From the NCBI RefSeq assembly GCF_004010195.1, contig NC_057719.1:29756419-29820418 (forward strand): DNA of 64,000 nucleotides, written 5' to 3'. Under the pieces are notes generated by a model that saw only the letters and a program-made list of their open reading frames with translations, did not search any database and was not told where the DNA came from. Each line of letters begins with the position of its first letter. Position 1 is the first letter of the stretch. Both the position numbers and the translations under genes were made by a program. The DNA is from Chiloscyllium plagiosum. Its lineage: Eukaryota. Below are positions 11,283-53,039 of the stretch, in pieces.

Positions 11283-13140
11283 AGTCAGAGTGATAGAGAT
11301 GTACAGCACGGAAACAGACCCTTCGGTCCAACTTATCCAAGCCGACCAGATATCCCAACTAATCCAGCCCCACTTGCCAGCACCCGGCCTATATCCCTAT
11401 AAACCCTTCCTATTCATATACCCATCCAGATGCCTTTTAAATGTTGCAATTGTACCAGGCTCCACCACTTCCTCTAGCAGCTCATTCCATACACGCACAA
11501 CCTTAAATCTTTTTTATATCTTTCCACTCTCACCCTAAACCTATGCCCTCTAATTCTGGACTCCCCCACCCCAGAGAAAATACTTTGTCTATTTATCCTA
11601 TCCCCTGCCCCTCACGATTTTATAAACCTCTACAAGGTCACCCCATAGCCTCCAACACTCCAGTGCAAACAGCCCCAGCCTATTCAACTTCTCCCAAAGC
11701 TCAAATCTTCCAACCCTGGCCACATGCTTGTAAATCTTTTCTTTCAAGTTTCACAATGTCCTTCCAACAGGAAGGAGACCAGAATTGCATGCAATTTTCC
11801 AAATGTGACCTGTACAGCTACAACCTGACCTCCCAACTCCTATACTCAATACTCTAACTAATAAAGGAAAGCATATCAAACGCCTTCTTCAGGTACTGGG
11901 GATTTAGCCACTTTTATGCGTTTCAAGACATCCAGCACTTTCTACTCTGTAATATGGACATTTTTCAAGATATCACCATCTATTTCCCTACATTCTATAT
12001 CTTCCATGTCCTTCTCCACAGTGAACACTAATACGAAATACTTATTTAGTACCTCCCCCATCTCCTGCGGCTCTACACAAAGGCCACCTTGCTGATCTTT
12101 GAGGGGAGTGTGTGGTGATGTAAGAGCACAACAGATCAGGCAGCATCCGAGGTGCAGGACTGTCGAGGTTTCGGGCAAAAGCCCTTCACCAGGAATCTGC
12201 AGTCCTCACTTTCGCCTAGTTGATCTTTGAGGGGCCCTATTCTCTCCCTAGTTACTCTTTTATCCTTAATGTATTTGTAAAAACCCTTTGGATATTCCTT
12301 AACCTTATTTGCCAAAGCTATCTCATGTCCCATTTTTGCCCTCTTGATTTCCCTCTTAAGTATACTCCTCCTGCCTTTTTACTTTAATGATTTTCTCAAT
12401 CTACTATGACATATGCTTCCTTCTTTTTCTTAACCAAACCCTCAATTTCTTTAGTCATCCAGCATTCTCTAAACCTACCAGCCTTTCCTTTCACCCTAAC
12501 AGGGATTATACTGTCTCTGGACTCTCATTACCTCATTTCTGAAGGCTTCCCATTTTCCAGCCGTCCCTTTACCTGCAAAACATCTGCCCCCAATCAGCTT
12601 TTGAAAATTCTTGCCTAATACCATCAAAATTGACCTTTCTACAATTTAGAACTTCAGCTTTTAGATCTGGTCTATCCTTTTCCATCACTATTTTAACACT
12701 AATAGAATTATGGTCGATGGTCCAAAATGCTCCCCCACTGACACCGCAGTCTGCCTTATTTCCCAAGAGTAGGTCAAGTTTTGCACCCTCTCTAGAAGGT
12801 ACATCCACATACTGAGTCAGAAAATTTTCTTGTACACACTTAAATTCCTCTCCACCTAAACCCTGAACACTATGGCAGTCCCAGTCTATGTTTGGAAAGT
12901 TAAAATCTCCTATCACAATCACACTATTATTCTCCAAGTAACTGAAATCTCCTTACAAATTTGTTTCTCAATTTCCCACTGACTATTAGGGGGGTCTATA
13001 ATATAACTCCAATAAGGTGATCATCCATTTCTTATTTCTCAATTCCACCCAAATAACTTTCCTGGACATACTTACGGGAATAACCTCCCCAATACAGCTG
13101 TAACGCTATCCCTTATCAAAAATGCCACTCTTGCCACTCC
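11283..13140 (-). mobile_element. CR1 LINE with internal deletion (APE, linker, 3' end)
   Basis: VIGDFNFPNIDW, LDLLLGN, SDHN-like motif, FYKYIKDKRVTRERIGPLKD; CR1 tail at 11285-11340. Confidence 0.92.
12107..12220 (-). mobile_element. Short hammerhead-headed Penelope-derived element (family A), internally inverted, inserted in CR1
   Basis: 14 bp TSD TGATCTTTGAGGGG at 12093-12106 and 12221-12234; 12107-12196 is minus (CTGGTGA-AGGGCTTTTGCCC-GAAACCTC, core mutated), about 12195-12220 is the plus-oriented 3' end. Confidence 0.85.
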
Positions 13141-13549
13141 TCTATAAGTCATAATACCTTTTCACCTCCCCTTAAACTCATGCCTCCTTCATGAAGGGAT
13201 GCAAGAAAATTGGAGGATGGACATCATGTGGTCAATCTCTGAAGCGGTGGAATTCAGTGAAGTCTTAGAGGCTGTAAAGTCCCTAAGCAGAGGATGAATT
13301 GTTATAGTCTGAGCTTATGCTGTGCTTCGTTGTAATGTTCCAGTAGGACCAGGACCACTTATTCTCTTATGGTATCTTAAGAAGAATTCCAAAGAGGTGT
13401 AACACTTCCTTAGCTGTCTCCTCATCGTTCAAGGATCCAAAAGTAACCTCAAGGTGCAGGAGCATTTTACTTGTACCTTTTCAAGTTAGTCTACCATATT
13501 CTCTGCTCACAAATTTAAACCAGCTATCTAAATATTCTGTCAACAAGAG

Positions 13550-14118
13550 CAGGTCAGAGGCTGGCAGAATAACTCAGCTCTAGGCTGCCCAGAGCCTGTC
13601 CACTATCTACAAAATAGAAGTCGGAGGTGTGATGGAATACTCTCCTCTTTCCTGAATAAATGCAGCACCAATTACATTCTAGAACCTTGACATCATCCTG
13701 AAAACACAGACGACATGACTCACACTCCATCAAACACATCAAAATTCACATCCTCAACCAGGACGGCCAAGTGGCTGTGATGCATTTCATCTACAATATA
13801 TGTACCATCTACAAAATGCACTGCAAAAAAAAAAACCAAGGATCTTTAAACAGAATCTTCCAAATTGCGATAACAACCATCTTGGAAGAAAGAAAGCAGC
13901 ACTTCTATGAGGACACTACAACCTACAAATTCCCCTCCAAGCCACATACTATCCTGATTTTGAACAATATCACTGGATCAAAATCCTACAAATTCCTCTA
14001 CAACAGCACTATTGTTGCATCTACACTGCATGAACTTCAGTACTCAAGAAGGCAGCTCATCACCACCTTCTCAAGAGCAAATAGGGGCAATAAATCTTAG
14101 CTTAACCAGCTACTCCAA
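13550..14118 (+). mobile_element. Old LINE 3' end (CR1/L2-type, shares tail with Deu/SacSINE-like SINE)
   Basis: CCCTCCAAGCCACA...CAAGAAGGCAGCTCATCACCACCTTCTCAAG...GGGCAATAAAT; related copies at 36240-36480 and 63230-63630. Confidence 0.6.
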
Positions 14119-15444
14119 CATAGAACATAGAACAATATAGCATGGGAACAGGCCCTTATGGCCACCATTTCTGTGCCAACCATGAAGCCATTCTAAACTA
14201 ATATCATCTGCCTGCACATGGTCCATATCTCGCTAATCCTTGCCTGATTATGTGTCTGTCTAAATATCTCTGTGCAAGCATATGCAGCATACCATCCAGA
14301 TAATGCCTGTAGTTTGGCAATAGCCATGATACTTTAATTGTGTTAATCCATTGTACCATTGCTATTTGAGCCACAAGAAACTGGAGAAGGCCAATGGAAA
14401 GCAAGGGCTAGTCCCTCATCACCAATTTTGGAACACATCTCACACAGATTGAGGGCAGCATGGTATGTGCAATGATGCCAAACAGACCACTGGGATGTTT
14501 AAGCAATGTAAGCCTCCTGAAACGCATTGAAGGAACCCCGGAGGGAGGGAAGAAGTGAGTCCTTGACTCTCGTGGTCTGCTGCATCTTGCAGAAACAAAC
14601 AATGACAGCACAATTCTTGTCATAAGGTTTACAATGAGAAACGGAAAAGGTGGAGAAGGAGGAAGAGAGGCTGCTGGTGGAAGGGAGAATGCAATAAATA
14701 CACTGCCTTTCTGGCCAAAGTATTCATGATCAGATCATGACAACAGGGAATGCAATCTCATTCCCCATTATACAACCATTCCATACTTTTCAAAGAATGC
14801 TGAAGTAAAAGTCACCATAGAACAAATTTACCGAAACAGCTCAATCAATTAAACCACCCAATATACCAAACAAAAGTTAACTACTATATTAGCCTTCTGC
14901 CTCGATTGCACAACCAGTCAGTTTTTTAGATTAGATTTTTAGATTAGATTAATTCTCTGAAGTGAATATTTGAGGCCAAGCTAGATTGATGCCCTTGCCT
15001 AACAAGAATTTAAAGTTCAACGGTAGATTGGAAAACTGAACTCCAAATTTAACAGATTAGCCATGACCCTATTGAATGGCAGCATATGCTCAAAGGGTTG
15101 GATGGCCTACTTTTGTTCCTAATTTGTATTCATACTCATCTTTCATTAGTCTTCACATGTTCTTGTGCTTCTGTGCAGTGTCACCTCAGTATGAGGCAAG
15201 ATGGATAAAGAGCACCAGTTGAGATGGGGTATTTAGATTTTCAAAAGACATTCAAAAAGTTTATTTCACAATATAAAGGTTCATGTATTGGGGATGATAC
15301 ATTAATAAGAGTAAAGGAGTAGCTAACTGAAAGGAAACAAAAGATGGGCTAAGTGTGTCAATTTCGGGTTGGTAAATGTTAACTAGTGTAGTGTCAACCA
15401 AATTGGTTGTGGACCTCAATTATTTATTGCCTCCATTAAATTTT

Positions 15445-15790
15445 CTTATTCATGCACAGGATGTAGGTGTCACTGACTCGGTCCATCATTGTCCATCCTT
15501 AATTACCCTGAGGGTAGTTGAGAGTCAACCACATTGCTAAGGGTTTGGAGTCATATGCAAGTCAGACTAGATGAGGATATCAGATTTTCTTCCCTTAGGA
15601 CATTAGTGAGCTGGATGGGTTTTTCTGACAATTGACAATGGCTTCATGGTCATCAGTAGATTCTTAATTTCACATATTTTTTACTGAATTCAAATTCCAA
15701 CATCTTGCATGGTGGGATTCGAACCCCAGAATGTTAGCTGAGTTTCTTGATTAACAACCTAGTAATAATACCATTAGGCCATTGCCTCCC
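15445..15790 (-). mobile_element. Deu/SacSINE-like tRNA-derived SINE
   Basis: Minus strand starts GGGGAGGCAATGGCCTAATGGT (A box) and GGGGTTCGAATCCC (B box); central domain and AATAAG tail shared with other copies. Confidence 0.75.
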
Positions 15791-16388
15791 CTATTAATGA
15801 CTTTGATAAAAGGACAGGGTGTAATTGCATCCAAATTTGCCGATGATACAAAAATAGGTGGGAAAGTAAATCATGAGAATACATCTGCAAGGGACATAGG
15901 AATAAATGAGTAGTGAAATAATTTAAAGTGATAATGTGAAGCTTTTCATTTTGGCTGAAAGAACAGAAAAGCAGAATGTTATTTAACAGGAGAATACAGA
16001 ATACAGCAGTACTGAGAGATTTTAGTATCCTTGAACACAAATTGTTAAAAAGTCAGCATGCAGGTAAGTAATTAGAAAGGCAAATAGCATGTTGGTCTTT
16101 ATTACAAAGGGGACAGAATCTAAGAGGGAAGAAGTCTTGTTGTAGCTTTAAAGCACAGTGTTGAGATAGCACCTGGGGAACTGTGTATAACTTTCACCTC
16201 CTTGAATAGGAATATACTTGATTTATAAATAATTCACAGAAGATCCTACATCAATTTCTGGGTTGAAGGGGGTCATCTTATGAGGGACGGCTGAATTAGT
16301 TGGACCTTTACTCACTGGATTTCAAAAGAACAAGAGGTAATCATGTGTAAACAGATTCTGAAGGGGTTTGATAGTGTAAATGCTGAAG

Positions 16389-16513
16389 CCCTGATGATGG
16401 GTTATGCCCAAAACAAGAGTCCTTTGCTCCTCAGATGCTGCCTGACCTGCTGTGCCTTTTCCAGCGCCACACTTTATCGACACTAACTCTTCAGCATCTG
16501 TCGTCCTATCTCC
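16389..16513 (+). mobile_element. Short hammerhead-headed element (family A), degenerate ribozyme
   Basis: 12 bp TSD TAAATGCTGAAG (16377-16388, 16514-16525); begins CC-CTGATGA-TGGGTTATGCCC-AAAAC (GAAA mutated). Confidence 0.8.
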
Positions 16514-16977
16514 TAAATGCTGAAGGGATGTTTTCTGTTGTTGCAGAATACACAACATAGGCGAACACTTTAAGCATAAGGTGTCATTCACTTAAGATGG
16601 CGAATAGGAGGAATTTCTTTTCAGAGGTTATTAATCACTAGAATTCTCTTCACCAGGGAACAATGGATGCTGGGTAATTTAATATATCCATGTTGCACAG
16701 ATCTTTAACGGACTGGAGCGTCAAGGATATTAGGGTGGTCCTCAATCAAGTCAGCCATGATCTTATTGAATGGTAGAGAATATTATAGGAGGCAAATGGC
16801 CTAATCCTACTTCAAATAATTTTGGAGTAATGTACTTGAAACTTCCAAACTCATTCAGGAAATAGTAACTTTCAGATACATCATATCCAGAATGTAGAAT
16901 GCTATTGCAAGGTTTTTCACGGGGGCAAAACCAAAGGAGGGATGGTTAAGACACCTGGTCAAAAATAAACATTTTTA

Positions 16978-17139
<162 letters not shown>

Positions 17140-18030: not shown

Positions 18031-18037
18031 AATGTGA

Positions 18038-25789: not shown

Positions 25790-28298
25790 ACAGTCAGACG
25801 TTTCTGCGGCCAGCAGCAAAAAATCAGAATGGTGTGTTGCTTCCCAGGTGCCCAGGTCAAGGATGTCTCAGAGAGGGTGCAGAATGTTCTTAAGGGGGGA
25901 GAGGGACCAGCAGGAGGTCATTGTAAACATTGGAACCAATGACATAAGAAGGGAAAAGGATGAGATTCTGAAGGGAGAATATACAGAGTTAGGTAGGAAT
26001 TTAGAAAGGAGATCCAGTGCTGTGAGGGTAGGAATAGAAAAATAGAGCAGATGAATGCAAGGCTGAGGTGCTGGTGTATGGGAGAAGGATTCACATTTTT
26101 GTATCATTGGAATCTCTTCTGGGGTCAAAGTAACCTGTACAAGGACGGATTGCACCTGAATTGGAAGGGGACTAATGAACTGGCAGGGAGATTTGCTAGA
26201 GCTGCCTGGTGAATTTAAACTAGTAAGGGCTGTAGGGGACCCAGGGAGATAGTGAGAAAAGAGATCAATCGGAGACTGGTGCAATTGAGAACAGAAGCAA
26301 GTCAAACAGTCAGGGCAGGCAGGGACAAAGCAGAGAACAAGGTAGGACTGATAAATTGTTGCATTTATTTCAATGCAAGAGGCCTAACAGGTAAGGCAGA
26401 TGAACTCAGGGCATGGTTAGGAACACAGGACTGGGATATCATAGCAGTTACAGAAACGTGGCTCAGGGATGGACAGGACTGGCAGTTTAACATTCCAGGA
26501 TATAAATGCTACAGGAAGGACAGAAAGGAAGGCAAGAAAGAAAGGAAGAGTTGTGTTTGTGATAAGGGAGAGCATTACAGTTGTACTGAGGGAGCATATT
26601 CCTGGAAATCATCCAGGGAAGTTATTTGGGTGGAACTGAGAAATAAGAAAGGGATGATCACCTTATGGGATTGTATTATAAACCCCCTAATAGTCAGAGG
26701 GAAATTGAGAAACAGATTCGTAAGGAGGTCGCAGTTATCTGTAAAAATAATAGGGTGGTTATGGTAGCAGATTTTAACTTTCCAAACATAGACTGGGACT
26801 GCCATGTGTTAAGGGTTTAGATGGAGAGGAATTTGTTAAGCGTGTACAAGAAAAATTTCTGATTCAAAATATGGATGTACTGACTAAAGGAGGTACAAAA
26901 CCGGACCTCCCTCTTGGAAAATAAGGCAGGGCAGGTGACTGAGGTGTCAGTGGGAGAGCACTTTGGGGTCAGCGACCATAATTCTACTAGTTTTAAAATA
27001 GTGATGGAAAAGGATAGACTGGATCTAAAAGTTGAAGTTCTAAATTGGAGGAATGCTTATTTTGACGGTATTAGGCAAGAACTTTCAAAAGCTGACTGTG
27101 GGCAGATGTTCGCAGGTAAAGGGACGGCTAGAAAATGGGAAACCTTCAGAAATGAGATAACCAGAGTCCAGATACAGTATATTCCTGTTAGGGTGAAAGG
27201 AAAGGCTAGTAGGTGTAGGGAATGCTGGATGAAGGGCTTTTGCCCGGAACGTCGACTTTCCTGCTCCTCGGAGGCTGCCTGACCGGCTGTGTTTTTCCAG
27301 CACCACTCTAATCTAGAGTCTGATTTCCAGCATCTGCAGTCCTCACTTTTGTCTAAAGAAAGTGAAGGTTTGGTTAAGAAAAATAAGGAAGCATATGTCA
27401 GGTATAGACAATATAGATCGAATCAATTGTTAGAAGAGTACAAAGGCAGGAGGAGTATACGCAAGTGGGAAAACAGGAGGATAAAAAGGGGACATGAGAT
27501 AGCTTTGGCAAATAGAGTTAAGGAAAATCTAAAGGGCTTTTACAATAACATTAAGGACAAAAGGGTAACTAGGGAGAGAATAGGACTTCTCAAAAAATCA
27601 GACAGCCTTAGTATGAGGCCGCAGGATATAGGGGAGATACTAAACAAATATTTTGCATCAGTGTTTACTGTGGAAAAGGACATGGAAGATATAGAATGTA
27701 GGGAAATAAATGGTGAAATCTTGAAAAATGTTCATATTACAGAGGAGAAAGTCCACTTTTGGATTAGGCCACTTTTGGAATATTGCGTGCAATTCTGATC
27801 TTCCTGTCGGAAGGACGTTGTGAAACTTGGAAGGGTTCAGAAAAGATTTACAAGGATGTTACCAAGATTAGGTTGAATAGGTTGGGGCTGTTTTCCCTGG
27901 AGCGTAGGAGGCTGAGGGCCAAGACCTTATAGAGGTTTATAAAATCATGAGGGGCATGGATAGGATAAACAGGAAAAGTCTGTTCCCTGGGTTGGGGGAG
28001 TTCAGAACTAGAGGGCATAGGTTTAAGGTGAGAGGGAAAATATATAAAAGAGACCCAAGGGTCAACTTTTTCACACAGAGGGTGGTATGTGTATGGAATG
28101 AGCTGCCAGAGGAAGTGGTGGAGGCTAGTACAATTGCAACATTTAAAAGGCATCTGGATGGCTATATGAATAGGAATGGTTTGAAGGGATATAGGTCAGG
28201 TGCTGGCAGGTGGGACTAGATTCGGCTGGAATATCTGGTCGGCATGGACGAGTTGGACTGAAGATTCTGTTTCTGTGCTGCACATTTCTATGGCTCTA
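25790..28298 (+). mobile_element. CR1 LINE (ORF1 esterase, APE, 3' end) with the RT core deleted near 27755
   Basis: VNIGTND, YFNARGL, ETWL, SDHN; jumps from HITEEKV to RPLLEYCVQF. Confidence 0.9.
27229..27352 (+). mobile_element. Short hammerhead-headed element (family A) inserted in CR1
   Basis: GATGA-AGGGCTTTTGCCC-GGAACGTC...CATCTGCAGTCCTCACTTTTG interrupts CR1 TGCTGGATGA|CTAAAGAA; joined by microhomology, no clear TSD. Confidence 0.8.
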
Positions 28299-28540
28299 AG
28301 TAACTAAAAACAATTCACTGAAATGACATCAAAAACTATTAATAATACTGGAAATACAGATTCTCAGAATTATCTTGCAGAAAGAGGTTATTCAGCTCAT
28401 TGTTCTTGCGTTGCCTCTTCCAACACACCTAGTGCCAATCCCCTGCTTTTCTCCTTGCAGACTATTTCTATCCAAATAATCAGAATAAAGGTGACACCCT
28501 AGGTCAGACATTCCATTTTCTGATCAACATTACGTATTAC

Positions 28541-29150
28541 AGGAAAACCGATGTTTCGGGCAAAAACCCTTCATCAGGAATGGAGGCAGGGAGCCTCCAG
28601 GGTGGAGAGATAAATGGGGGGGTGGGGCTGGGGAGAAGGTAGCAAAGAGTACAAGAGGTGAAGGGGGGTGGGGATGGAGGTAATAGGTCAGAGAGGAGGA
28701 TGGAGTGGATAGGTGGGAAGGGAGATTGGCAGGTAGGACAGGTCATGAAGACAGTGCTGGGCTGGAAGTTTGGAACTGGGGTAAGGTGGGGGGAGGGGAA
28801 ATGAGGAAACTGGTGACATCCACATTGATGCCCTGGGGTTGAAGTGTTCCGAGGCGGAAGATGAGGNNNNNNNNNNNNNNNNCTACCTTCCCTCACCCTC
28901 CTCTCTGACCTATCACCTCCATCCCCACCTCCATTCACCTACTGTACTCTTTGATACCTTCTCTCTCCCTCTTCCCCCCCACCTCCATTTATCTTTCCAC
29001 CCTGAAGGCTCCCTGCCTCCATTCCTGATCAAGAGCTTTTGCCAGAAACATCAATCCTGCTCCTCGGATACTGCCTGACCTGCTGTGCTTTTCCAGCACC
29101 ACTCTAATCTAAACTCTGGTTTCCAGCATCTGCAGTCCTCACTTTTGCCT
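28541..29150. mobile_element. Inverted (fold-back) Penelope-like insertion, family A, with a hammerhead motif in each arm; assembly gap at centre
   Basis: Minus arm 28541-28866, Ns at 28867-28882, plus arm 28883-29150; TSD ATTACGTATTAC (28529-28540) / ATTACATATTAC (29151-29162). Confidence 0.85.
28545..28581 (-). ncRNA. Minimal hammerhead motif, core boxes intact, stem III altered (ACAU)
   Basis: Minus strand TTC-CTGATGA-A-GGGTTTTTGCCC-GAAA-CATC-GG. Confidence 0.65.
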
Positions 29151-30032
29151 ATTACATATTACCAGTAAATATTACATACAAACATTACAGTGCAGTACAG
29201 GCCCTTCAGCCCTCAATGTTGCGCCGACCTGTCATACCAATCTGAAGCCCAACTAACCTACACTATTCCATGTACATCCATATGCTTGTCCAATTACAGT
29301 TCAGCTTTCTTCAGAAATTGGAGAGTTTGGCATTCACTAACATTGAATACAGTGTCCTGTATCATAGGGCATAGATTGTGGCTTGCTAAAAGTGCAAGGT
29401 TCAAAATGTTCAAACCTGTAAACAAAGTTGACTAATTAAGGAGATGTTTTGTGTCTCAGAGCTGGTAGGTGGCCAACAGTGTGTGCCTGTCTGTTTGTAT
29501 GTATGCACCTGTGTGAGTGTGATTGAGAGAGAGATTGTTATGATCATTGGTATTTCATCAGTTGTTGGTCTTCCATCATGTGAGGAGACAACAGGTATCT
29601 CTATACTCTTTGGAATTGAGAACACTCTGCAAAGACTATGGCTCCCAGCCCGGAATGAAGAGTTATCAGTCTCCCCATTGGTTGGTAGCTCTTTGAGGTG
29701 CATTATTGCTCCAATGCCAGATTCATGTAAAATCCACCCGAGACTCCCAGAACCGGCCAAGGATGTAATTGGCCTCAACTCAGATTGGCTAATAAACAGG
29801 GCCTCTCCTTCCCATAAAAACACCAGCTGGTAATTTTGGAATGTTTGTAGTTATATAGTTTTCAAATCTGGACAGCCCAATGAATGTCACCATTTCTTTA
29901 TAAACCATGACAAATACATTAAAATAATGAATAAAGTCAAATTCTTCAGGAGAAAATGGATAAGTTTCAATTAACCATTATTTATTAGTTCCAGATCAAT
30001 GATTTAACAATAATACAAAGGGTTATACTTAC

Positions 30033-30089: not shown

Positions 30090-30298
30090 TTGGTAACTTA
30101 CATGCAAATTAACCACTACAAAAAAAAGCAGCATGGCAAAAATAAAACAATTTTTGCTTAAGATATTGTAGCAGTTGAATATTATTTAAATAAAGTAAAA
30201 ATCCTTACAAATTAGCTCAGATTCTCAAAGTTTATGTGAAGATTTGTAGCTCGGGTGCTCGTTGTTGTAGTTGTGTTCGCCGAGCTGGGAATTTGTGT

Positions 30299-30340
30299 TG
30301 TAGACGTTTTGTCCCCTGTCTAGGTAACATTCTCAGTGCT
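30299..30340 (-). ncRNA. Inactivated hammerhead motif in the left arm
   Basis: Minus strand GCA-CTGAGAA-TGTTACCTAGACAGGGGAC-AAAA-CGTC-TAC; both conserved boxes mutated. Confidence 0.6.
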
Positions 30341-31344
30341 TGGGAGCCTCCTGTGAAGCGCTTCTGTGATCTTTCCTCCGGCATTTATAGTGGTTTGAAT
30401 CTGCCGCTTCCGGTTGTCAGTTCCAGCTGTCCACTGCAGTGGCCGGTATATTGGGTCCAGGTCGATGTGCTTGTTGATTGAATCAGTGGATGAGTGCCAT
30501 GCCTCTAGGAATTCCCTGGCTGTTCTCTGTTTGGCTTGTCCTATAATAGTAGTGTTGTCCCAGTCAAACTCATGTTGCTTGTCATCTGCGTGTGTGGCTA
30601 CTAAGGATAGCTGGTCATGTCGTTCCTTGGCTAGTTGGTGTTCATGGATGCGGACCGTTAGCTGTCTTCCTGTTTGTCCTAAGGAGTGTTTTGTGCAGTC
30701 CTTGCATGGGATTTTGTATACTACGTTGGTTTTGCTCATGCTGGGTATCGGGTCCTTTGTCCTGGTGATTTGTTGTCTGAGAGTGGCTGTTGGTTTGTGT
30801 GCTGTTATGAGTCCTAGTGGTCGTAGTAGTCTGGCTGTCAGTTCAGAAATGTTCTTGATGTATGGTAAAGTGGCTAGTCCTTTGGTTGTGGCATGTCCTC
30901 ATTCCGTTGTCTTTCCCTGAGGCCACAACCCGATACCCAGCATGAGCAAAACCAACGTAGTATACAAAATCCCATGCAAGGACTGCACAAAATACTACAT
31001 AGGACAAACAGGAAGACAGCTAACGGTCCGCATCCATGAACACCAACTAGCCACGGAACGACACGACCAGCTATCCTTAGTAACCACACATGCATGAGTT
31101 TGACTGGGACATGAGTTTGACTGGGACAACACTACTATTATAGGACAAGCCAAACAGAGAACAGCCAGGGAATTCCTAGAGGCATGGCACTCATCCACTG
31201 ATTCAATCAACAAGCACATCGACCTGGACCCAATATACCGGCCACTGCAGCGGACAGCTGGAACTGACAACCGGAAGCGGCAGATTCAAACCACTATAAA
31301 TGCCGGAAGAAAGATCACAGAAGCGCTTCACAGGAGGCTCCCAA

Positions 31345-31384
31345 GCACTGAGGATGTCACCTAGACAGGGGACGAAACGTCTGC
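31345..31384 (+). ncRNA. Minimal type I hammerhead ribozyme (family C), apparently intact
   Basis: Stem I GCA/TGC, CTGAGGA 31348-31354, stem II GTCACCT/AGGGGAC (one mismatch), GAAA 31374-31377, palindromic ACGT stem III, GUC cleavage after 31381. Confidence 0.85.
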
Positions 31385-34300
31385 AACACAAATTCCCAGC
31401 TCGGCGAACACAACCACAACAGCTCTGATTCTTTTGTTGCACACATGGAAGAAATACATGTGCTTAAAATCAAGGCTGGTTACTGTTCATTGGAGATTTG
31501 AAGAGAGGGAGTCAATAGGATAGTTGATAATCATACGTAACAATATCAATCCACAGCTAGTGAATATTCAAACTATGTAGCAGAGAAAACTCTTCCCCAC
31601 ACAGCTTGATTCTAGTCCCCACTGACCACACCCAAAGTAAATGCTTGGGTTAATCTCTAAACCACTCAATCTCCCTCTGTTAAGGGATCAAAATATAAAT
31701 TTGATGAAATACAGTGGATTATTTCCCATCACCATCTGAAGGGAAATCTGTTCCTGTGGAAATCAAGAGGAGCCCACTGCAAGTTGCACCCTCTTCATTG
31801 TTTCATTTTATCCTTCCATGGGATATGTGCATAACTGGTAGACATTCATTGTCCATTCATGATTGCTTTCAAGGTAGCAGCGATGTGCTGCCTTTTGAAC
31901 CACTGTTGTACATTTGGTGTAGGAACAGTCACAGAATACAGGAAGGGAGATTTGTGATTTTCATTCAAACTTTCTCTGTCTTTGCTCTTATCCTTCTCCA
32001 TCACTTCTCTCCCTCTCTGCTGGTCTTCAATCTCTACTCCACCAGCCATCCTTCAACTATCCTTCTCCCTTCTTGTATTCAATTTGCCCTTCTATTCTTG
32101 TACTATCTTCTCCTGTTCTTTCCTGTCCCCTTCCTATCCTCATCCCTTTCTTCCATCTGCTTCTTTTACATTCTCTTCTCTGTTGTTTACTCAAAGAAGT
32201 TCTGTAAAATTTATCAGACAGTCCTTCCTTTAAAAATCTATACTTGCTCTCTGTAATTACTCGTGTCTTTTTCTGCAGTATTGATTTTGTCCAACATTAA
32301 GCCATAGAAGCTTACCCATGATCAAAGTTAGGCTGGCTGGTTCATAGCTACCTGATGTCTCCCTTTCTGAACCAACTGTTATATTGGCAACCCTCCAACC
32401 TTCTGTCACAACTTTCATATTCAAGAATATTTATGGTCAGAGATTTATTTGCTTTCTCATTTCTCTAATCGTTCTGGGACATGAGCCAAGGGAGTTGATA
32501 CCTTTTCCACTTTCAGCTTTGTCAATTTAAATCACCTTCACTTCCAGTACCCATAATTTCTTCTGCAAAAAAAAAAGAAGTCTCATTTATTATCTCTGAA
32601 AGGTTTTCATCATCCAGAGGATTTCATGTTTCATCTTTCATTGGTTCTTTTCTTCCTTGAACAGTCATTTTAGTGTTACAAATGGGTAACTACAAGTAAA
32701 AGTAATTACAAGTTCTCTGTTCTATTTATCAGATTTTGCTCATACTGTCTCTTAGCTTTCTAGTACTTTTTGGTTTTCTTTTTTTATATAGTTGGCTTGA
32801 TTTTATTTTATATTATTAGCTTCTCAAATACTTCTAAACCAGCAGCAGCTAGGAACTTTCCTGAAAAATACAAACAGTAGAAAAATATATCTTTCATAAA
32901 TTCAGGGAAAATAATCAAAAATATAGTTGCAGGTGTTTAACAGTCACCATGAAAACTGACCTCTTCTGGCTGTAATTTATTATTCATGTGACTCTTCATT
33001 TTCAATGCTAGAAATAATATTTAAGGTAGTTGGAAGTATTTACTTTAAGAAAGCAATCTGTTAGAAGGTTGACTTAGAAAAAGTTGTAAAAGAAACTATG
33101 GGAAAATCTGGTTTTTCCAAAGTCAGGACAAGGCAGCAGGAGTACTCCTAGGAGGAGGACTGCCAGATTGGAAACAGGAATAAATCAATATGAATTCTGA
33201 AGGGCTGTGGCATCCCTGAAGAACAGAATTTACATTTGAGATTTTAAGAAAAGGGAAATCTTGGGTGGGATTAAAGTAAAACTGGATTCAGCCTACACAG
33301 CTATAAAACACTATATTAAGTTAAAACTGCTTACTTTAAAATTTTAACATATGCAATAAAACTTGTTATTATTTAAGAACATGAAAGCTAGTGGTATGGT
33401 TCTCTCAGTTAATTAATGGGCATTCAAAATTTCTCTTTGAACATTAACGATTCCTACCAGGATCCTCACAAGTATTTCTTATAAATTAAAGGTCAAGGCA
33501 AATTTCAAGTTAATAACATAAAAGAAGCTAAGCCAGGTTTCTTCCATTCTCTCCCATCAGTTTCTAATTTAGAACCAGTATACAAACAAATGCTTGGCAT
33601 TAACTCTACCATATGCATCACATAATACTGATCTATAGTTTTACAGTCCTAAAACACACAATGCAAAGTCTATATGTTTTGATTTCCAGGAGAGTTCTAA
33701 GTTGGGACTTTACATTTAAATCTAGGGCAAATGAGAATAAATGTGCTCTCTGTTAGAATTTGCTTGGCTGTAAAAGCTGGGTGTTAATGAGGATCAATAG
33801 AAAGACAAACTGCATTATTGAGAGAAAGGTGACTGATACTTTGAAGACAATCACAGCTGTTGCTATGTTCGCAGTTAAAAAATGCAAAGTCTCTTAAAAG
33901 CTTTCATATGTTATTTACCAAGGTTCCAAGTAGTTGTGCTAAAATGTGCTCCTTTGTTTTTCAGATAGAAGGCTGTTGTGGGTAGATATAGCTAAATCAA
34001 CATTTCTTCTTGCAAACAGGGCTAAAGTATTTTCTGTTGGCATGAAGGGGGAAAGGAAATATTTTTGGAATTAAATTAAAAATATTATAGAAACCCAAGA
34101 ATATTACAGAAGCTTGGTCTTGTAGAGTTTGCAGCTCAGAGAATTCAGGAAGCTCAAAATTAAATGGTAGCCAGGTCTGTAAGTTAAGCAGAGAAAAAAA
34201 GATATCTGTTTATTATGTAAGTGAAAACATACCCAATTCAGTGGCTGAATTCATGGGAGGGGAGGGGGTTGGGTTAAGAGACTGTAAGATTTGCTTAGTT

Positions 34301-40735: not shown

Positions 40736-41373
40736 TGCAATCACAAAAAAATCACTGGAATTGCATCCTACTTCACAGCTTCAGATACAACTTACAATAT
40801 ATTCCAATATTTTGTTCCATTTAACCATCACCACATCCTCATCTATCCCTTCTGGCTCTCATTTCCCAAGGAATTAAAATGTTCATCAAATTTAAAGTAC
40901 TTTTTGCAATCTCACCCCATGCTGTAGCTCCTTTAGGTATAAAATCATGTTGCAATCTCCTCACTTCAGTTTGTTGTTCCTGCAGAGTGTCTAATTTTAA
41001 CTTAGTCTTCCTCTGGTATTCCCTTCCTATCTATTGCCTGCTCTCTATGTTGAAGCCTAATAAAAATCCACATGAACAATCACTTCCTCGAAGTTCAATT
41101 TTTGTTTGGCTGTTCTATTTTACGCACTCTCTCACAGACACTATGTAGGTTCCCGTTGACAAAAGGAAATATAATACTTGCAAATATACAAAGTATATTA
41201 GGTAATATCCTAATTATTCAGTACACAGAAACATTTAAAGTATTGCATAGGTACAAATACATTGAGGTTCTGCTCGATTCATAATAAACGTTTACAGAGG
41301 GATAATAATCTGCAATTATATTACCACATTTGTCCAGTCAGAAAAGTCTTTAAATTGGCGTAACAAATAACTA

Positions 41374-42181
41374 TCAGCGTTCCAGAAAGACCACTCCCTC
41401 CGCGACTCCCTCGTCAGGTCCACACCCCCCACCAACCCAACCTCCACTCCCGGCACCTTCCCCTGCAACCGCAAGAAATGCAAAACTTGCACCCACACCT
41501 CCCCCCTCACTTCTCTCCAAGGCCCCAAGGGATCTCCCATATCCGTCACAAATTCATCTGCACCTCCACACACATAATTTACTGGATCCGCTGCAACCGA
41601 TGTGGCTCCTATACATTGGGGAGACAAGCCACCTACTTGTGGAACGTTTCAGAGAACACCTCTGGGACACCCGCACCAACCAACCCAACCACCCCTTGGC
41701 TGAACACTTTAGCTCCCCCTCCCACTCCGCCAAGGACATGCAGGTCCTTGGCCTCCTCCATCGCCAGACCATGGCAACATGACATCTGGAGGAAGAGCGC
41801 CTCATCTTCCGCCTAGGAACCCTCCAACCACAAACGATGAATGCAGATTTCTCCAGTTTCCTCATTTCCCCTCCTCCCACCTTTTCTCAGTCCCAACCCT
41901 CGGACTCAGCACCACCTTCTTGACCTGCAATCTTCTTCCCGACCTATCACCCTCACCTTGACCTCCTTCCACCTATCGCATTCCCAACACCCCTCCCCCA
42001 AGTCCCTCCTCCCTACCTTTTATCTTAGCCTGCTTGGCACACCCTCCTCATTCCTGAAGAAGGGCTTATGCCCGAAACGTCGATTCTCCTGTTCCTTCGA
42101 TGCTGCCTGACCTGCTGCGCTTTTCCAGCCACACATTTTTCAGCTCTGATCCCCAGCATCTGCAGTCCTCACTTTCTCCTA
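41374..42181 (+). mobile_element. 5'-truncated Penelope-like element (GIY-YIG + pLTR), coding parent of family A
   Basis: FICTSTHIIYWIRCNRCG / LYIGETSHLLVERFREH; 14 bp perfect TSD GTAACAAATAACTA at 41360-41373 and 42182-42195. Confidence 0.92.
42050..42085 (+). ncRNA. Minimal type I hammerhead ribozyme (family A), apparently intact
   Basis: ATTC-CTGAAGA(42054-42060)-A-GGGC TTAT GCCC-GAAA(42074-42077)-CGTC|GATT; cleavage after 42081. Confidence 0.82.
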
Positions 42182-42614
42182 GTAACAAATAACTACTTTA
42201 CCGCAAAAGTATCAGGAAGAAAGAGGGTAGAAGCCACCTTCAAACCAAGTAACATTAGGCGTTTTGAGTTGTTTAAACGAAAATCAAATGTTGACACAAC
42301 TTGACCCATGGCAATGTGGACCAGATCACACCCAGAGACTGGATGAGCCAAGATTTAAAGTGAATGAAATGGCTGGAGCGCGCCGACTCGTGGCTAATGG
42401 GACGGCGGTTTCTATGCCGCTGTCTCATTCACAGAGTCGCCACGGTAGGAAAGGAAGGGACAACAGGCCGGCGATGTCGACCACTCCATGTCTCCAATCC
42501 TCCGCTGCTTCGACAGTCCACATGGAGAAAGTAAAGTTTACAAATATCCTGTCTATCTGTCTGTCAGTCAGTCAGTCAGTCAGTCAGTCAACCGCCTGAT
42601 CTCGAGCTGCTCAC

Positions 42615-43330: not shown

Positions 43331-43379
43331 GGGATTTCACTACAGATTATTATTAAAGATCCAAAACCATTATTAATCT

Positions 43380-46539: not shown

Positions 46540-49500
46540 CCCAGGTGATGTTATCAACCTAGACTTCCGAAAGGCCTTTGATAAGATGCCTCATGGGAGC
46601 CTGCTGAGTAAGGTGAAGGCCCATGGTGTTTGAGGTGAGCTACTGGCATGGATTGAGGATTGGCTGACAGAAGGCAGAGAGTTGGGATAAACGGGTCTTT
46701 TTCAGAATGGCAGCTAGAGACAAGTGGTGTCCCACAGCGTTCAGTGTTGAGGTCCCAGCTGTTCACTTTATATATAAATGATCTGGATGAAGAGACTGGG
46801 GGCATTTGGTGAAGTTCACTATGATGCGAAGTTAGGTGGACAGGCAGGTAGTTCTGAGGAAGTGGAGAGGCTACAGAAAGATTTAGGCAGTTTAGGAGAA
46901 TGGTCCAAGAAATGGCTGATGAAATTCAATGTGAGCAAATGTGAAGTCTTGCACTTGGAAAAAAGAACACAGGCATGTACTATTTTATAAACGGTGAAAA
47001 AATTCATAAAGTCAAAGTACAAAGGGATCTGGGAGTGCTAGTACAGGATTCTCTAAAGGTTGACTTGCAGGTTGAGTCCATGGTTAAGAAAGCAAATGTA
47101 ATAGAACATAGAACATTACAACGCAGAACAGACCCTTCGGCTCTCAATGTTGTGCCAACCTGTGAACTATTTTCAGCTCATCCCCCTACACTATCCCCAA
47201 ATCATCCAAAATTATCTAAGGACTGTTTAAATCTCCCTAATGTGGCTGAGTTGACTACATTAGCAGGTAGGGCATTCCACACCCTTACCACTCTATGCGT
47301 AAAGAACCTGCCTTTGACATCTGTCTTAAATCTATCCCCCTGAATTTGTAGTTATGCCCCCTCGTACACACTGGCATCATCATCCTAGGAAAAAGAGTTT
47401 TGCTGTCTACCCTATCTAATCCTCTGACCATCTTGTATGTCTCTATCAAATCCCCTCTTAGCCTTCTCCTTGCCAATGAGAACAGGTTAAAGTCTCTTAG
47501 CCTTTCCTCATAAGACCTTCCCTTCAGACCAGGCAACATCCTGGTAAATCTCCTCTGCACCTTTTCCAATGCTTCTACATCCTTCCCGAAATATGGGGAG
47601 CAGAACTGTACACAATATTCCAAGTGTGGCCGCACCAGCGTTTTGTATAGTTGCAGCATGATATTGCGGCTCCGGAACTCAATCCCTCTACGAATGAAAC
47701 TTAACACACTGTATGCCTTCTTAACAGCACTATCCAACTGGGTGGCAACTTTCAGGGGTCTATGTACATGGACTCCAAAATCCCTCTGCACATTCACACT
47801 ACCAAGAATCTTTCCATCAACCCAGTACTGACAAACAGCAGTGGTCCCAAAACAGATCCTTGTGGCGCACCACTAGTAACCGGACTCCAGGCTGAATATT
47901 TTCCATCAAACACCACTCGCTGCCTTCTTTCAGAAAGCCAGTTTCTAATCCAAACTGTGCCTCTGCATTTTCTCCAACAGCCTGCCATGTGGAACCTTAT
48001 CAAATGCTTTACTGAAGTCCATGTATACCACGTCAACTTCCCTACCCTCATCTACATGCTTGGTCACCTTCTCAAAAAGCTCAATGAAGTTTGTGAGACG
48101 CGACCTGCCCTTGACGAAACCATGTTGACTATCTGAAATCAAATTATTGCTTGCTAGGTGATTATAAATCTTATCTCTTATAATCCTTTCCAAAATCTTT
48201 ACTACAACAGAAGTAAGGCTCACCGGTCTATAATTACCTGGGTTCATCTCTACTGCCCTTCTTGAACAAGGGCACAACATTTGCAATCTTCCAGTCCTCT
48301 GGTACCAAGCCTGTAGCCAATGATGACTTAAATATCAAAGCCAAAGACTCTGCTATCTCCTCCCTAGCTTCCCAGAGAATCCTCGGATAAATCCCATCCG
48401 GCCCAGGGGACTTGTTTACTTTCACTCCTTCCAGAATTGATAACACCTGTTCATAACTAACCTGGATCCTTTCTAGTCTAATATCTCATCCCTCATTCTT
48501 CTCCTCTACAATATTAACCTTTTCCTGAGTGAAAAATGATGAGAAATGTTCGTTTAGCACCTCTCCGATCTCCACAGGGTCCACACTCAACTTCCCACTT
48601 CTGTCTTTGATTGACCCTTTTCCTACCCTAATCATCCTTTTATTCCTCACATATCTTTAGAAAGCTTTAGGGTTCTCCTTTATTCTATTTGCTTAAGATT
48701 ACTCATGTCCTCTCTTTGCTCTTCTTAGCTCTCTCTTTAAATCCTTCCTAGCTCATCTGTACCTCTCCATCGCCTCATCTGAACCATCTTGCCTCATCAA
48801 CACATAAGCCTCCTTCTTCTTCGTAACAAGAGATGCAATTTCTGTTGTAAACCACGGTTCCCTTATCTTATCACTTCCTCCCTGCCTGACAGGGACATAC
48901 CTATCACGGACGCGCAATATCTGTTCCTTAAACCAGCTCCACATTTCCATTGTCTGCATCTCCCACATTTTGCTATCCCATTCTATGCATCCTAATTCTT
49001 GCCTAATCGTGTTATAATTTCCCCTGCCCCATCGATAACTCTTGACCTGTGGCATGCACCTATCTGTTTCCACTTGTCATTTATTTCAAGAGGGTTAGAA
49101 TGTAAAAGCAGTGAGGTACTAGTAAGACTTTATAAAGCTCTGGTTAGGTCCCATTTAGAATATTGTGTCCAGTTTTGGGACCCACCCCTCAGGAAGGACA
49201 TACTGGCACTGGAGCCAGCAGAGATTCACACGGATGATCCCTGGAATGGTAGGCCTAACATACGATGAACGGCTGAGCATCCTGGTATTGTATTCATTAG
49301 AGTTCAGAAGGTTGAGAGGAGATCTAATAGAAACTTACAAGATAATGCATGGCTTAGAAAGGGTGGACACTGGGAAATTGTTTCCGTCAGGTGGGGATAC
49401 TAGGACTTGTGGGCACAGCCTTAGAATCAGAGGGGGTCAATTTAGAACAGAAATAGGAGACATTTCTTCAGCCAGAGAGTGGTGGGCCTGTGGAATTCAC

Positions 49501-49696
49501 TACCATGGAGCGCAGTGGAGGCCGGGACTTCAAATGTCTTCAAGGCAGAGATTAATTCTTAATCTTGCAAGGAATTAAAGGATATGGGGAGAGTGCGGGT
49601 GAGTGGCGTTGAAGTGTCCATCAGCCATGATTGAATGGCGGAGTGGACCCGATGGGCTGAATGTCCTTACTTCCACTCCTTTTTTCTTATGGTCTT
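46540..49696 (+). mobile_element. CR1 RT/3' fragment (46540-47100 and 49076-49696) split by an antisense CR1
   Basis: LDFRKAFD...KKANV| continues as [10 protein letters not shown]...RLRGDLIETYK; CR1 3' UTR at 49620-49696. Confidence 0.85.
47101..49072 (-). mobile_element. CR1 LINE nested antisense in CR1
   Basis: (ATAGAAC)n tail at 47101, [33 protein letters not shown]. Confidence 0.9.
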
Positions 49697-50206
49697 ATTG
49701 CATTTGAATCAGAAATGTGCAAATCGTGCCCTTTAAGACTGCATGCATGGTCAAAAAGAGAGCTCTGAAAAACTATAGTTGACTTATACATCATATACAG
49801 GTATATGAAAATTACAAGATTTGTTTGGCCAAAATAAGGGGTTACTTATATATGAAATCGACCTATATATGAGTATATATGGTAGCTTTGTTATTCAGCT
49901 GATATAAAGGTATAATTCTTACCTGATTATTGTTTACGCTTGGTACAAGCTTCCAATTATGTCTTATTTAATGCTCTGCCCAATGGTATAACTACTGTAA
50001 GAAGATCTATAAGCTACTCCAACCAGCACTTTCTGATTTATGATTTCTTGTCTTCACCCAGACTGATTGTTCTTCTAATTCTAATTCCTGAACATCTGAA
50101 ACAAGATCCTTTCTTACTACTTTAAAATAATCCTTTATTATCAAAGTTACTCCTGCTTGTTTTCCATTCAAAATAATAAATACCCTGGAATATATTGCTC
50201 AACTTT

Positions 50207-50368
50207 TGCTATAAATTCTATGCCTTACAACTGTGCCCTCCACAACCACCTGATGAAGGAGCAGTGCTCCGAAAGCTAGTGCTTCCAATTAAACCTGTTG
50301 GACTATAACCTGGTGTTGTGTGATTTTTAACTTTGTACACCCGAGTCCAACACTGGCATCTCCAAATC
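50207..50368 (+). mobile_element. Short Penelope-derived element (family B) with hammerhead
   Basis: 13 bp TSD ATTGCTCAACTTT (50194-50206) / ATTACTCAACTTT (50369-50381). Confidence 0.85.
50244..50284 (+). ncRNA. Minimal type I hammerhead ribozyme (family B), apparently intact
   Basis: Stem I CAC/GTG (extends AA/TT past a C-C mismatch), CTGATGA 50250-50256, stem II GGAGC/GCTCC, GAAA 50271-50274, palindromic AGCT stem III, CUA cleavage after 50278. Confidence 0.87.
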
Positions 50369-50709
50369 ATTACTCAACTTTGGTCACCTTGCAATCATGT
50401 TGTCATATATCAAACCCACTTATCTCTATTTGGGTCATTAGTTATATTGTTATGAATGCTTTGTAAAGCCTTTAATCTTAATTTTTGAATCACTATTCCT
50501 TGTTTGTACATTATTCATTGACATCTAGTATCTATCCTTGTCTCTTCCCATTCCATTCTCCCTCATTTTATCCAAATCACTTCACTTCTCTATTGTCTTG
50601 ACCTTTCTGTTTAAATTTCAAAATTTCCCTTCTCCTGATTTCTCAACAGTCTCCCGCACAACCCTTTTAATTCAAAACCCTGCCCAGTACCGTAGTTATT
50701 ATGATTCAA

Positions 50710-51050
50710 AGTTGATTAACTCAATTGGTGATCGGCTGGTATATAATGAGAATGATGCCAACAGCACAGGTTCAATTCTTGCACTACTGAGGTTACTGTG
50801 AAGGACTATCCCTCTTAACCCTCCCCTGAGACAACCAGTTGTCTCCCTCGGGGCGATGTGGACTTGTTGGGCCGAAGGGCCTGTTTCCACACTGTAAGTA
50901 ATCTAATCTAATCTAATCTAATCTAATCTTGCACTGCTGAGGTTACTGTGAACGACTATCCCTCTTAACCCTCCCCTGAGACAACCAGTTGTCTCCCTCT
51001 CTCTGATGAGTGATCGGCCCTATACTTCTTTCGGATTGTGGTGACTTTTT
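50710..51050 (+). mobile_element. Old tRNA-derived SINE containing a truncated HE1 tail (50850-50926) flanked by a 73 bp duplication
   Basis: A-box-like TAACTCAATTGG, B-box GGTTCAATTC; 50777-50849 repeated at 50927-50999. Confidence 0.7.
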
Positions 51051-51697
51051 ATGACTCGGCAGGATGCTGAATGCAGCCCAATTGAAGTGGAGCTCATCCC
51101 AACAGAACAGTTCCTTCATCTCCATGTTCTGCTATCAGCCTCCCATGAATCAAGATCACTTATCACACATCACATATGTCACTCCTCAAGCCACACATTA
51201 ATTGCTTGCCCCTATGCATTTTGTAAATGGTCCAGGTAATATTTCAAAAATTGAGGTTTTGAGATTCATGAATTTTAAATTGAACCATAACTCCCTAAAA
51301 TTTTCCAACAGAAAAATATATGTTCTACATATATCATTGGTGATCATGTGGACTTTGACAAACAGATCTTCCCCTTACTTCTTTGGTTTAGACAGTACAT
51401 TTGGATTGGCTCAGGTTTGGAGGGCCAAAGGGTCTGTTCCTGGGCTGTAAATTTTCTTTGTTCTTCTTTATTCTTTAATGCAGTTCTAGCAACAAGGTGA
51501 TGTCTTTCAGACAAGCACTGAATAGAAAACACAATCTTCAGCACTGCTGAAAACAGTACCCAGCCTCTTAATTATATTGTTGCTATCATTACCACATTTT
51601 TTTTATTCTACCTACTGGAATATCATCCTATATGATGGTGAATTTGTCTATCCAGCTGGGAGTCCTTGTTATCATTCACATAGGGAACAAATACTTT

Positions 51698-51794
51698 GGA
51701 TTCTGGATTAGTGGTGCTGGAAGAGCACAGCAATTCAGGCAGCATCCGAGGACAGGCAAAATCGACGTTTCGGGCAAAAGCCCTTCATCAGGAA
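51698..51794 (-). mobile_element. Short hammerhead-headed element (family A)
   Basis: Nearly identical to 52810-52935 over its length; no clear TSD. Confidence 0.85.
51761..51794 (-). ncRNA. Minimal hammerhead (family A), apparently intact
   Basis: Minus strand TTC-CTGATGA-A-GGGCTTTTGCCC-GAAA-CGTC|GAT. Confidence 0.82.
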
Positions 51795-52809
51795 CGGACC
51801 TGTTGACCAAAGCTAAATGGCAATGTTCCTCAATCACTATGTCCAGAATCCCAATATTCATCCTATCGAAAAGATAGGCAGGTGGGCAGAGGAGGTACGG
51901 TTGCCTAGTTGGAAAGAAATAAAATCAAATCAGGAGTAGGAAACGAAGTCAGGCCAGATGGTGTGGAATCTGTTTGGGTAGAATTGAGGAACCGCAAAGA
52001 TAAAAAAAAATCATAATTGGATTTGTGTACAGGCAACCAAACAGTAGTCAGAAGCTGGGGTACAAGATAGACAAGGAGATAGAAAAGATGTGTAGGAGAG
52101 GCAAAGTTACAGTGATCATGGGAAATTCCAGTATGCAGGTGGACTGGGAAAATCATGTTGGTAGTGGATTGCAAGAAAAAGAATTTGTGGAATATCTACA
52201 AGATGGTGTTTTGAAGCAGCTGGTAGTGGAGCCCACCATGGAACAGGCAATACTAGATTTAGTGTTGTGCAATGAGGCAGACTTGATAAGGGAGCTTAAG
52301 CTGAAGAAGCCCTGAGGAGACAGTGATCATAATATGATTGAATTTACTCTGCAATTTGAGAGGGAGAAGAAAGAATCAGAGGTAACGGTATTACAGCTGA
52401 ATAAAGGCAACTACGGAAGCATGAGGGAGGAGCTGGGTAGAATTTACTGGGAGATGAGCCGAGCAGGAAAGACAGTGGAATAGCAATGGCAGCAGCTTTT
52501 GGGAATAAGTCAGGAGAAGAAGAAGAAATTCTTCCCGAATAAAAAGAAGCATGGTACAGGGAGGATGCGGCAACCATGGCTGACTAAGGAAGTCAAGGAT
52601 AGCATAAAAGCAAAAGAGGAAGTATATAATGTGGGGAAGAGCAGTGAGAAACCAGAGGAAGCTTACAAAGACCAACAGAGGGCAATGAAAAAAGAAATAA
52701 GGAGGAAGAAGATTAAATATCAGCTTAAGCTAGCCGGTAATATAAAGGAAGACTGTAGGAGTTTCTTTACATATATATAGGGGAAAAGAGAGGCAAAAGT
52801 AAACATTGG

Positions 52810-52935
52810 ATAAAAACAATGACTGCAGATGCTGAAAACCAGATTCTGGATCAGTGGTGCTGGAAGAGCACAGCAATTCAGGCAGCATCTGAGGACAGGC
52901 AAAATCGACGTTTCGGGCAAAAGCCCTTCATCAGG
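52810..52935 (-). mobile_element. Short hammerhead-headed element (family A), young
   Basis: Perfect 15 bp TSD AAAAGTAAACATTGG at 52795-52809 and 52936-52950. Confidence 0.92.
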
Positions 52936-52937
52936 AA
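52904..52937 (-). ncRNA. Minimal hammerhead (family A), apparently intact
   Basis: Minus strand TTC-CTGATGA(52934-52928)-A-GGGCTTTTGCCC-GAAA-CGTC|GAT. Confidence 0.82.
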
Positions 52938-53039
52938 AAGTAAACATTGGGCCACTGAAAAATGACGCAGGATTGGTAATAGTGGGGAACAAGGAAACGG
53001 CTGACAAACTATATCAGTCTTCACAGTGGAAGACATGAG

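Follow-up and report, generated by a model that had tools for sequence, protein, structure and literature searches.

How Penelope-like elements copy themselves is still debated, and among the published models are those with antisense RNA that primes itself, with circles cut out by the ribozyme and with priming at internal sites. Their pseudo-long terminal repeat (pseudo-LTR or pLTR), tail, inverted copy and minimal hammerhead are already known. In vitro, the anole Penelope protein primes at either of two internal sites, one at each border of the tail; it elongates both strands of the target, requires RNA downstream of the priming site and takes uncleaved RNA as its template (PMC11167929). For inverted forms, the available sections of PMC3846280 propose self-priming on antisense RNA, and those of PMC11702581 attribute an extra G at full-length L1 insertion junctions to the mRNA cap. 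Here, we describe a 64,000-nt stretch of the Chiloscyllium plagiosum genome (NC_057719.1, positions 29,756,419–29,820,418, forward strand; hereafter the window), in which short copies, or stubs, of the terminal unit of a Penelope-like element begin beside a hammerhead motif. Throughout, position 0 is the C of CUGA (window 42054) and negative positions lie upstream. The stubs are probably run-off copies of sense RNA that is capped and uncleaved, with reverse transcription primed internally at +127 or near +90.

The unit forms the end of a 5′-truncated element that is flanked by a 14-bp target site duplication (TSD; 41360–41373 / 42182–42195) and whose GIY-YIG match is weak (E 0.29). The element and the features around its terminal unit are:

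41374–42181, plus strand: 5′-truncated Penelope-like element, probably of Neptune type, comprising a Cys-motif linker, a frameshifted GIY-YIG endonuclease, a 3′ untranslated region and the terminal unit.
42018–42024, plus strand: TTTTATC box, a putative TATA-like core promoter element, with TTATC beginning 30 nt before the putative transcription start.
42047–42053, plus strand: initiator-like CTCATTC, in which the A at 42050 (−4) would be the capped transcription start.
42050–42085, plus strand: minimal type I hammerhead motif, with a CUGAAGA core (42054–42060), stem II and GAAACGUC.

In the longer relatives L118, L134 and L201, a YIDD/YFDD reverse transcriptase (RT) is followed in order by an LYIGETG endonuclease (EN) motif, and the linker between them carries a Cys motif, which on sequence fits the Neptune/Nematis type. 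Pfam matches to these relatives, RVT_1 at E 0.0084 and GIY-YIG at E 0.0017, both fall short of the curated cut-offs, and no intact open reading frame (ORF) was found among the longer relatives retrieved. The terminal unit recurs ahead of the ORF at the 5′ end of the full element, as a partial-tandem pseudo-LTR: L064 and L171–L200 contain the unit with its continuation, and L201 and L202 connect this continuation to the RT. The ORF ATG lies about 40 nt beyond the 5′ unit, and the total element length is near 3.3 kb. Because it stands at both ends of the element, the unit is at once the pseudo-LTR end and the 5′ leader. Penelope machinery as the maker of the short copies, as proposed in the initial annotation, is supported; the unit is the terminal repeat of a Penelope-like element. 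A seeming second fixed 5′ end at 41371, where several matches began, is only the end of the search query, as other copies extend further upstream.

Several further observations concern the element itself. In L201 (minus strand), just upstream of the continuation, the place of the unit ahead of a near full-length copy is taken by (CCTAAT)4-like repeats together with a short piece of duplicated leader. L202 (minus strand, about 3900–4400 in reverse-complement coordinates) has a low-complexity Ala/Thr/Pro-rich stretch in the N-terminal coding region before the RT, which recalls inserts described for rotifer Penelope ORFs. The tail at window 42165–42182 reads CTCAC, a pyrimidine run and then AG, which we take to resemble a branch point and 3′ splice site, perhaps of a leader intron like that of D. 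virilis Penelope.

The initial annotation listed five short copies that match the end of the 41374–42181 element and start near the hammerhead core, and these are indeed present, with 81–86% identity in three and 76–78% in two and with starts at −4, −2, +3, −3 and −1 to −3. The TSDs of 12–15 bp reported for three of them were recovered as well (14, 12 and 15 bp at 12107, 16389 and 52810). Four copies had been said to run to the 3′ end; three are simple full units, because 12107–12220 is a head-to-head inversion that is not continuous to CATCTGCAGTC. The five copies are:

12107–12220, arms on both strands: head-to-head inversion insertion, with 2–3 common bases at the joint between the minus arm, which spans −4 (12196) to roughly +85, and a piece of the tail on the plus strand (12195–12220); 14-bp TSD, 12093–12106 / 12221–12234.
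16389–16513, plus strand: solo tailed stub, start −2; 12-bp TSD, 16377–16388 / 16514–16525.
27229–27352, plus strand: solo tailed stub, start about +3, without TSD, within another repeat.
51698–51794, minus strand: solo untailed stub, −3 to about +96, 5′ end at 51794, without TSD.
52810–52935, minus strand: solo tailed stub, start −1 to −3 (52935–52937, overlapping the TSD); 15-bp TSD, 52795–52809 / 52936–52950.

The same 5′ limit recurs across the 3.56-Gb assembly. The genome sample comprised 158 stretches, namely the window and 157 position-chosen 10-kb stretches, four of which adjoin it (1.634 Mb, including 61,838 N). A unit profile search returned 375 matches, of which 140 were excluded and 235 scored at least 60; removal of 16 that met N or a stretch edge left 219 copies for the analysis of ends. 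By extrapolation, the genome holds about 530,000 unit arms. The clustering of short-copy 5′ ends suspected from the window proved far beyond chance, with 97 of the 219 copies (97 of the 181 at risk) ending at +5 to −5, most often at −3 (17 copies) and −4 (15 copies). Specifically, the per-base stop rate is 0.002–0.009 from +45 to +6, 0.067 at +5 to −5, 0.033 at −6 to −14, 0 at −15 to −35 (0/62 ends) and 0.0036–0.0054 upstream of −35. The sharp edge is the A of ATTC at −4, four nucleotides before CUGA. In exact whole-genome counts for one young subfamily with template C at −5, 27,257 matches reach −3; divergence from the template sets in at −4 for 6146 of these, at −5 for 5724 and at −6 for 2917, and 12,470 continue. 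Copies that carry the 5′ leader tell a similar story: among 25 loci, counted after exclusion of five duplicate or reference loci, 12 start at −8 to +11, four start further upstream and nine are truncated. In line with the earlier statement that self-cleavage does not cause the ends, none of the 219 falls at the predicted ribozyme cut between 42081 and 42082, that is, before +28, and four fall within 2 nt of it, which rules out ends defined by this cut. The edge lies 32 nt upstream of the predicted cut, where the weak helix I begins.

A single untemplated base often marks the edge. Before the core, long copies read (C/T)ATTC, and in the random sample G stands at −5 in 0/48 long versus 8/31 short copies (p 0.0003). 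In the young subfamily genome-wide, the base at −5 is the template C in 15,387 matches, G in 3444, A in 1634 and T in 646, and G thus makes up 60% of the non-template bases, where 26% would be expected. The neighbouring positions served as controls, counted by hand in the first 100 matches listed (C 62, G 19 and A 19 at −6; C 54, T 33 and G 13 at −4). Long copies with a substitution at −5 (n = 61) follow an ordinary spectrum of T 39, A 15 and G 7, without G excess. The contexts upstream of the G vary: only 2 of 100 listed look like the template, and a further G directly precedes it in 9 of the first 50 listed (hand count). Since the contexts vary while the G is bound to −5, there is one extra G at one position; the same heterogeneity rules out a common spliced leader or upstream exon. 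Additionally, the largest group of 5′ loose ends among those listed in public-run contigs lies at −4, and its consensus begins with an extra G (185 contigs in X15, possibly the assembly's own sample, and 42 in X3). Five listed joints from −4 in public contigs begin with the extra G, as do four of the five leader-carrying copies that start at exactly −4.

The context of the edge resembles a promoter. Of 51 long templates that end in ATTC, 40 have a TTATC starting at −29 to −32, and its spacing is kept across diverged subfamilies although the intervening sequence differs. The TTTTATC box is likely to be a TATA-like core promoter element, and CTCATTC resembles the initiator consensus. A poly(A) single-cell library (X21, about 2% of reads) covers the unit with no shared molecule start, and its loose-end consensus at −4 begins without an extra base. 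Neither this library nor X22, with 0 reads on the unit, bears on where transcription starts or on whether circles exist. An RNA 5′ end at −4 might alternatively come from processing, by another nuclease or by cleavage in an alternative fold, with an untemplated C added at any RNA end. This would explain the fixed end and, given a C-biased terminal transferase, the G, and the start at −4 is itself putative. Nevertheless, a promoter would account for both the box at −30 and the initiator-like context, the G excess is absent at neighbouring end positions, and no second hammerhead geometry follows the site before −4 (CTC), all of which makes processing a quite improbable origin.

A cut in DNA was weighed as another source of the edge, whereby the element endonuclease would cleave its own DNA copy at the ATT before the hammerhead during resolution of an intermediate. 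The anole protein does cut mostly at an ATT motif that lies downstream of the junction between ORF and pLTR (PMC11167929), and the edge here is ATTC. However, a DNA cut gives no reason for a single extra G and no account of the conserved box 30–32 nt upstream, and 46% of the young-subfamily matches cross the site intact. We regard this explanation as improbable.

The hammerhead was called by motif inspection, since Rfam gave 0 matches at E ≤ 1 anywhere in the window. According to the accessible part of PMC4209133, the minimal motif consists of CUGANGA, an unpaired base, stem II and GAAACGUC. The window motif matches such a minimal type I hammerhead, its core and stem II being found in the sequence and stem II in the predicted fold, and its self-cleavage is a prediction. 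Helix I has just four positions, one of them U-U. The leader region folds no better than shuffled sequences (z 0.02), which argues against a structural stop and says nothing on cleavage.

Stalling or switching of the reverse transcriptase at the folded ribozyme was the second route offered by the initial annotation; palindromic bases there would favour joining. Many inverted joints do use palindromic bases of the core and stem II, and ends already increase from +15 inwards. A stall would be expected 3′ of the hairpin, but just one hairpin is predicted and the edge is beyond it, on its 5′ side, and 8 of the 219 ends fall at +20 to +24 as against 59 at −5 to −1. Together with the unremarkable fold, the clustering of solo stubs with TSDs and the extra G that it leaves unexplained, this renders a structure-dependent stop hard to credit.

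Weaker matches of the sample, scoring below 60, include older, diverged hammerhead-headed families of GAAGGGTCA/GAAGAGTCA types. These families appear to begin near the core too, often as inverted pairs.

The short copies do not behave as a lineage of their own. A discrete non-autonomous SINE or retrozyme lineage, propagated from its own short masters and possibly via circular or tandem RNA, was the first option of the initial annotation. It draws on the extrapolated copy number of about half a million, on TSDs of at least 9 bp in 14 of 72 non-inverted short copies versus 1 of 72 shifted controls, and on a weak nearest-neighbour signal (p 0.02). In a tree of 181 cores, which is poorly resolved (84 columns), short and long labels change 50 times versus 50.5 in shuffles, and the short copies lie scattered among the long ones, with no short-only clade and no private diagnostic variants of the kind that define a SINE. 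For SINEs, an internal Pol III promoter or a head derived from tRNA, 5S or 7SL would be a further mark, and Rfam matched no family in the window. Long copies occur beside solo and inverted ones in all five motif-defined subfamilies. The variants that 51698 and 52810 have in common, noted earlier as a possible mark of short copies, occur also on three long copies in the same 100/97 clade, and the aligned core of 51698 is identical to two long copies elsewhere. The tandem route fares no better: among the 235 copies there are 3 head-to-tail pairs, spaced 205–381 nt apart, with no unit array and hence none of the head-to-tail tandem hammerhead units of retrozymes. The ends, moreover, lie away from the ribozyme cut, the point at which a retrozyme monomer would be bounded. 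Taken together, these findings make a separate lineage very improbable.

At their other end, the stubs fall into two classes, tailed copies that stop at about +110–127 and untailed copies that stop at about +80–100, and both classes recur as loose ends in public contigs and reads. The inverted 5′-truncated copy and the one-sided 30–40 bp tail of Penelope-like elements are also found here, with 90 of the 219 copies adjoining an inverted arm. Exactly one tailed and one untailed arm make up 34 of 35 head-to-head pairings (one arm being paired twice), a regularity not expected if the two priming sites were used at random. The arm reaching further upstream is the untailed one in 22 pairs and the tailed one in nine, with three equal. 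Because the pairing is mixed and either arm can extend further upstream, two coupled priming events fit better than fold-back copying of one arm from the other, which is disfavoured. Coupled priming fits without the antisense template that the available part of PMC3846280 proposes.

Some loci show more complex joints. In the inverted pairs L174, L188 and L191, one jump joint is common to both arms (+263 to −116 in L174; +272 to −35 in L191), and L174 and L188 each reuse a single upstream start, the outer pass matching 4–5 joint bases. This pattern would suit an RNA circle, transcripts from composite loci, or an enzyme that jumps repeatedly from end to end of one RNA; for the separate lineage weighed above, such reuse of joints and starts would suit circles or composite masters as a side route. 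Across L171–L200, many loci consist of the unit and leader followed by a jump back to a unit starting at −6 to −1, and 8 of 25 jumps exit the leader between +257 and +276, a count that the search query biases.

We infer the following course of events, whose promoter, cap and sequence of steps are all hypothetical. A Pol II promoter (TTATC box and initiator) in the upstream repeat would start transcription at the A at −4. The element protein would nick the target and prime reverse transcription at an internal site of the RNA. On the 5′ copy of the repeat, such priming would leave only about 95–130 bases, and the enzyme would reach the cap and copy it as one extra base. The cDNA end would then join the target by microhomology, giving a solo stub, join a second cDNA primed from the other strand, giving a head-to-head pair, or jump to another RNA position, giving a partial tandem. 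Long copies may stem from read-through RNA primed on the downstream repeat, or from a jump. Stubs carry neither the upstream box nor the downstream leader and would therefore be dead on arrival, to be re-made from each active subfamily. LTR-like homologous strand transfer that leaves a cap scar in long copies was considered and set aside, as no scar was seen (G in 7/61); transfer after trimming is compatible with this. LTR elements make minus-strand strong-stop DNA, a short run-off cDNA that results from internal priming near the 5′ end. A target-primed counterpart is a tentative extension of the run-off reading: the protein might bind the 5′ leader of the capped sense mRNA, prime one target strand at +127 and the other at about +90 in a coupled manner, copy to the cap and have to jump for more, so that stubs, pairs and partial tandems would be its outcomes and the hammerhead, at the cap, might serve as a decapping or template-inactivating switch.

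Several points weigh against run-off from a cap. The transcription start at −4 derives from genomic copies rather than from mapped RNA 5′ ends, and the whole-genome base counts come from one subfamily only. The contrast in G:A between −5 and −6 depends on 38 listed matches (p 0.023), and −5 also shows a raised count of A (1634), for which palindromic joints of inverted pairs are the probable source. Reverse transcriptases can, moreover, add C without a cap through terminal transferase activity. Among the 219 ends, 22 are called at −6 to −14, some of them because local alignments ran on by chance. The bin at −15 to −35, which is empty where about 4–5 ends would be expected, may likewise be partly an alignment effect. 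Many ends lie slightly inside the edge (+9 to −3) or on the templated C at −5, and only a minority of stubs therefore carry the G; for the others, trimming and microhomology joining have to be invoked. Solo copies also have slightly fewer long nearest neighbours than shuffles (0.20 vs 0.34, p 0.02). Finally, in the accessible part of PMC2377424 the D. virilis Penelope promoter is internal and TATA-less, with the start 46 nt plus an intron away, and the geometry of start and box is thus not universal.

The window holds further copies and repeats, the first two of which were missed by the initial annotation:

28539–29154, arms on both strands: head-to-head pair of longer copies, whose plus arm ends near 29150 and whose minus arm contains endonuclease sequence at 28739–28866.
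6152–6222, minus strand: old, diverged unit fragment (nhmmer E 0.0006).

A nested near-perfect inverted repeat at 30263–31421 (98% over 313 nt, 96% over 167 nt) may be a young element of the MITE or fold-back kind. In type, the repeats resemble those of cartilaginous fishes. Another family of short repeats is spread across the window, for example at 11287, 25056, 36607 and 57151, and dense LINE fragments throughout resemble what we take to be CR1.

With respect to the debate on Penelope-like copying, the hundreds of thousands of base-precise stubs are an in vivo record that favours capped, uncleaved, internally primed sense RNA, and they predict an exact transcription start and core promoter. 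They also carry a warning for annotation, in that dispersed minimal hammerheads in such genomes would be Penelope stubs rather than SINEs or retrozymes. A search by title and abstract opening, with most subscription journals and Repbase outside its scope, listed no earlier account of Penelope-like stubs formed by run-off at a cap.

As described in the available sections of PMC8557442 and PMC3846280, the EN+ elements Neptune and Nematis share with the shark element a single ORF, predicted for the latter, in which a Cys-motif linker joins RT and GIY-YIG, the pseudo-LTR, an adjoining inverted 5′-truncated copy, an optional 30–40 bp tail at one end and TSDs of about 9–17 bp. Unlike in those descriptions, stubs dominate among the products here, with one extra G and a 5′ limit that is exact to the base, a form that the same sections leave undescribed. 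PAc (Poseidon, Anolis carolinensis) is alike in its two internal priming sites one tail-length apart, about 90–130 nt beyond the hammerhead, in extending both target strands, and in using uncleaved RNA as template without ends at the ribozyme cut (PMC11167929). In PAc, however, the ORF begins inside the hammerhead, whereas the ATG here lies about 165 nt downstream; pairs here nearly always join one tailed and one untailed arm (34/35), and the PAc paper maps no transcription start and leaves run-off stubs undiscussed (PMC11167929).

The minimal hammerheads of metazoan pLTRs likewise have the CUGANGA core, an unpaired base before stem II, a G-C closing pair and a palindromic GAAACGUC, and occur mostly as single dispersed motifs, which the accessible part of PMC4209133 takes as probably truncated Penelope-like elements and for which it proposes self-cleavage and circles; the edge here, by comparison, is 32 nt upstream of the cut. 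Non-LTR retrozymes are similarly non-coding, hammerhead-bearing, pLTR-related and dependent on the Penelope-like enzyme (available sections of PMC7229834 and bioRxiv 10.64898/2026.07.22.740005), yet they are tandem repeats processed to circles, with 150–450 bp units and canonical type I hammerheads in PMC7229834, whereas the copies here are solo or head-to-head, bear a minimal hammerhead and form no lineage of their own. As for L1, copying to a capped 5′ end there too leaves one extra G, so far as the accessible part of PMC11702581 describes it. Distinct from both L1 and LTR strong-stop DNA, the shark stubs involve no tRNA primer, the long copies lack the cap scar, and the short cDNA would itself be inserted by target priming.

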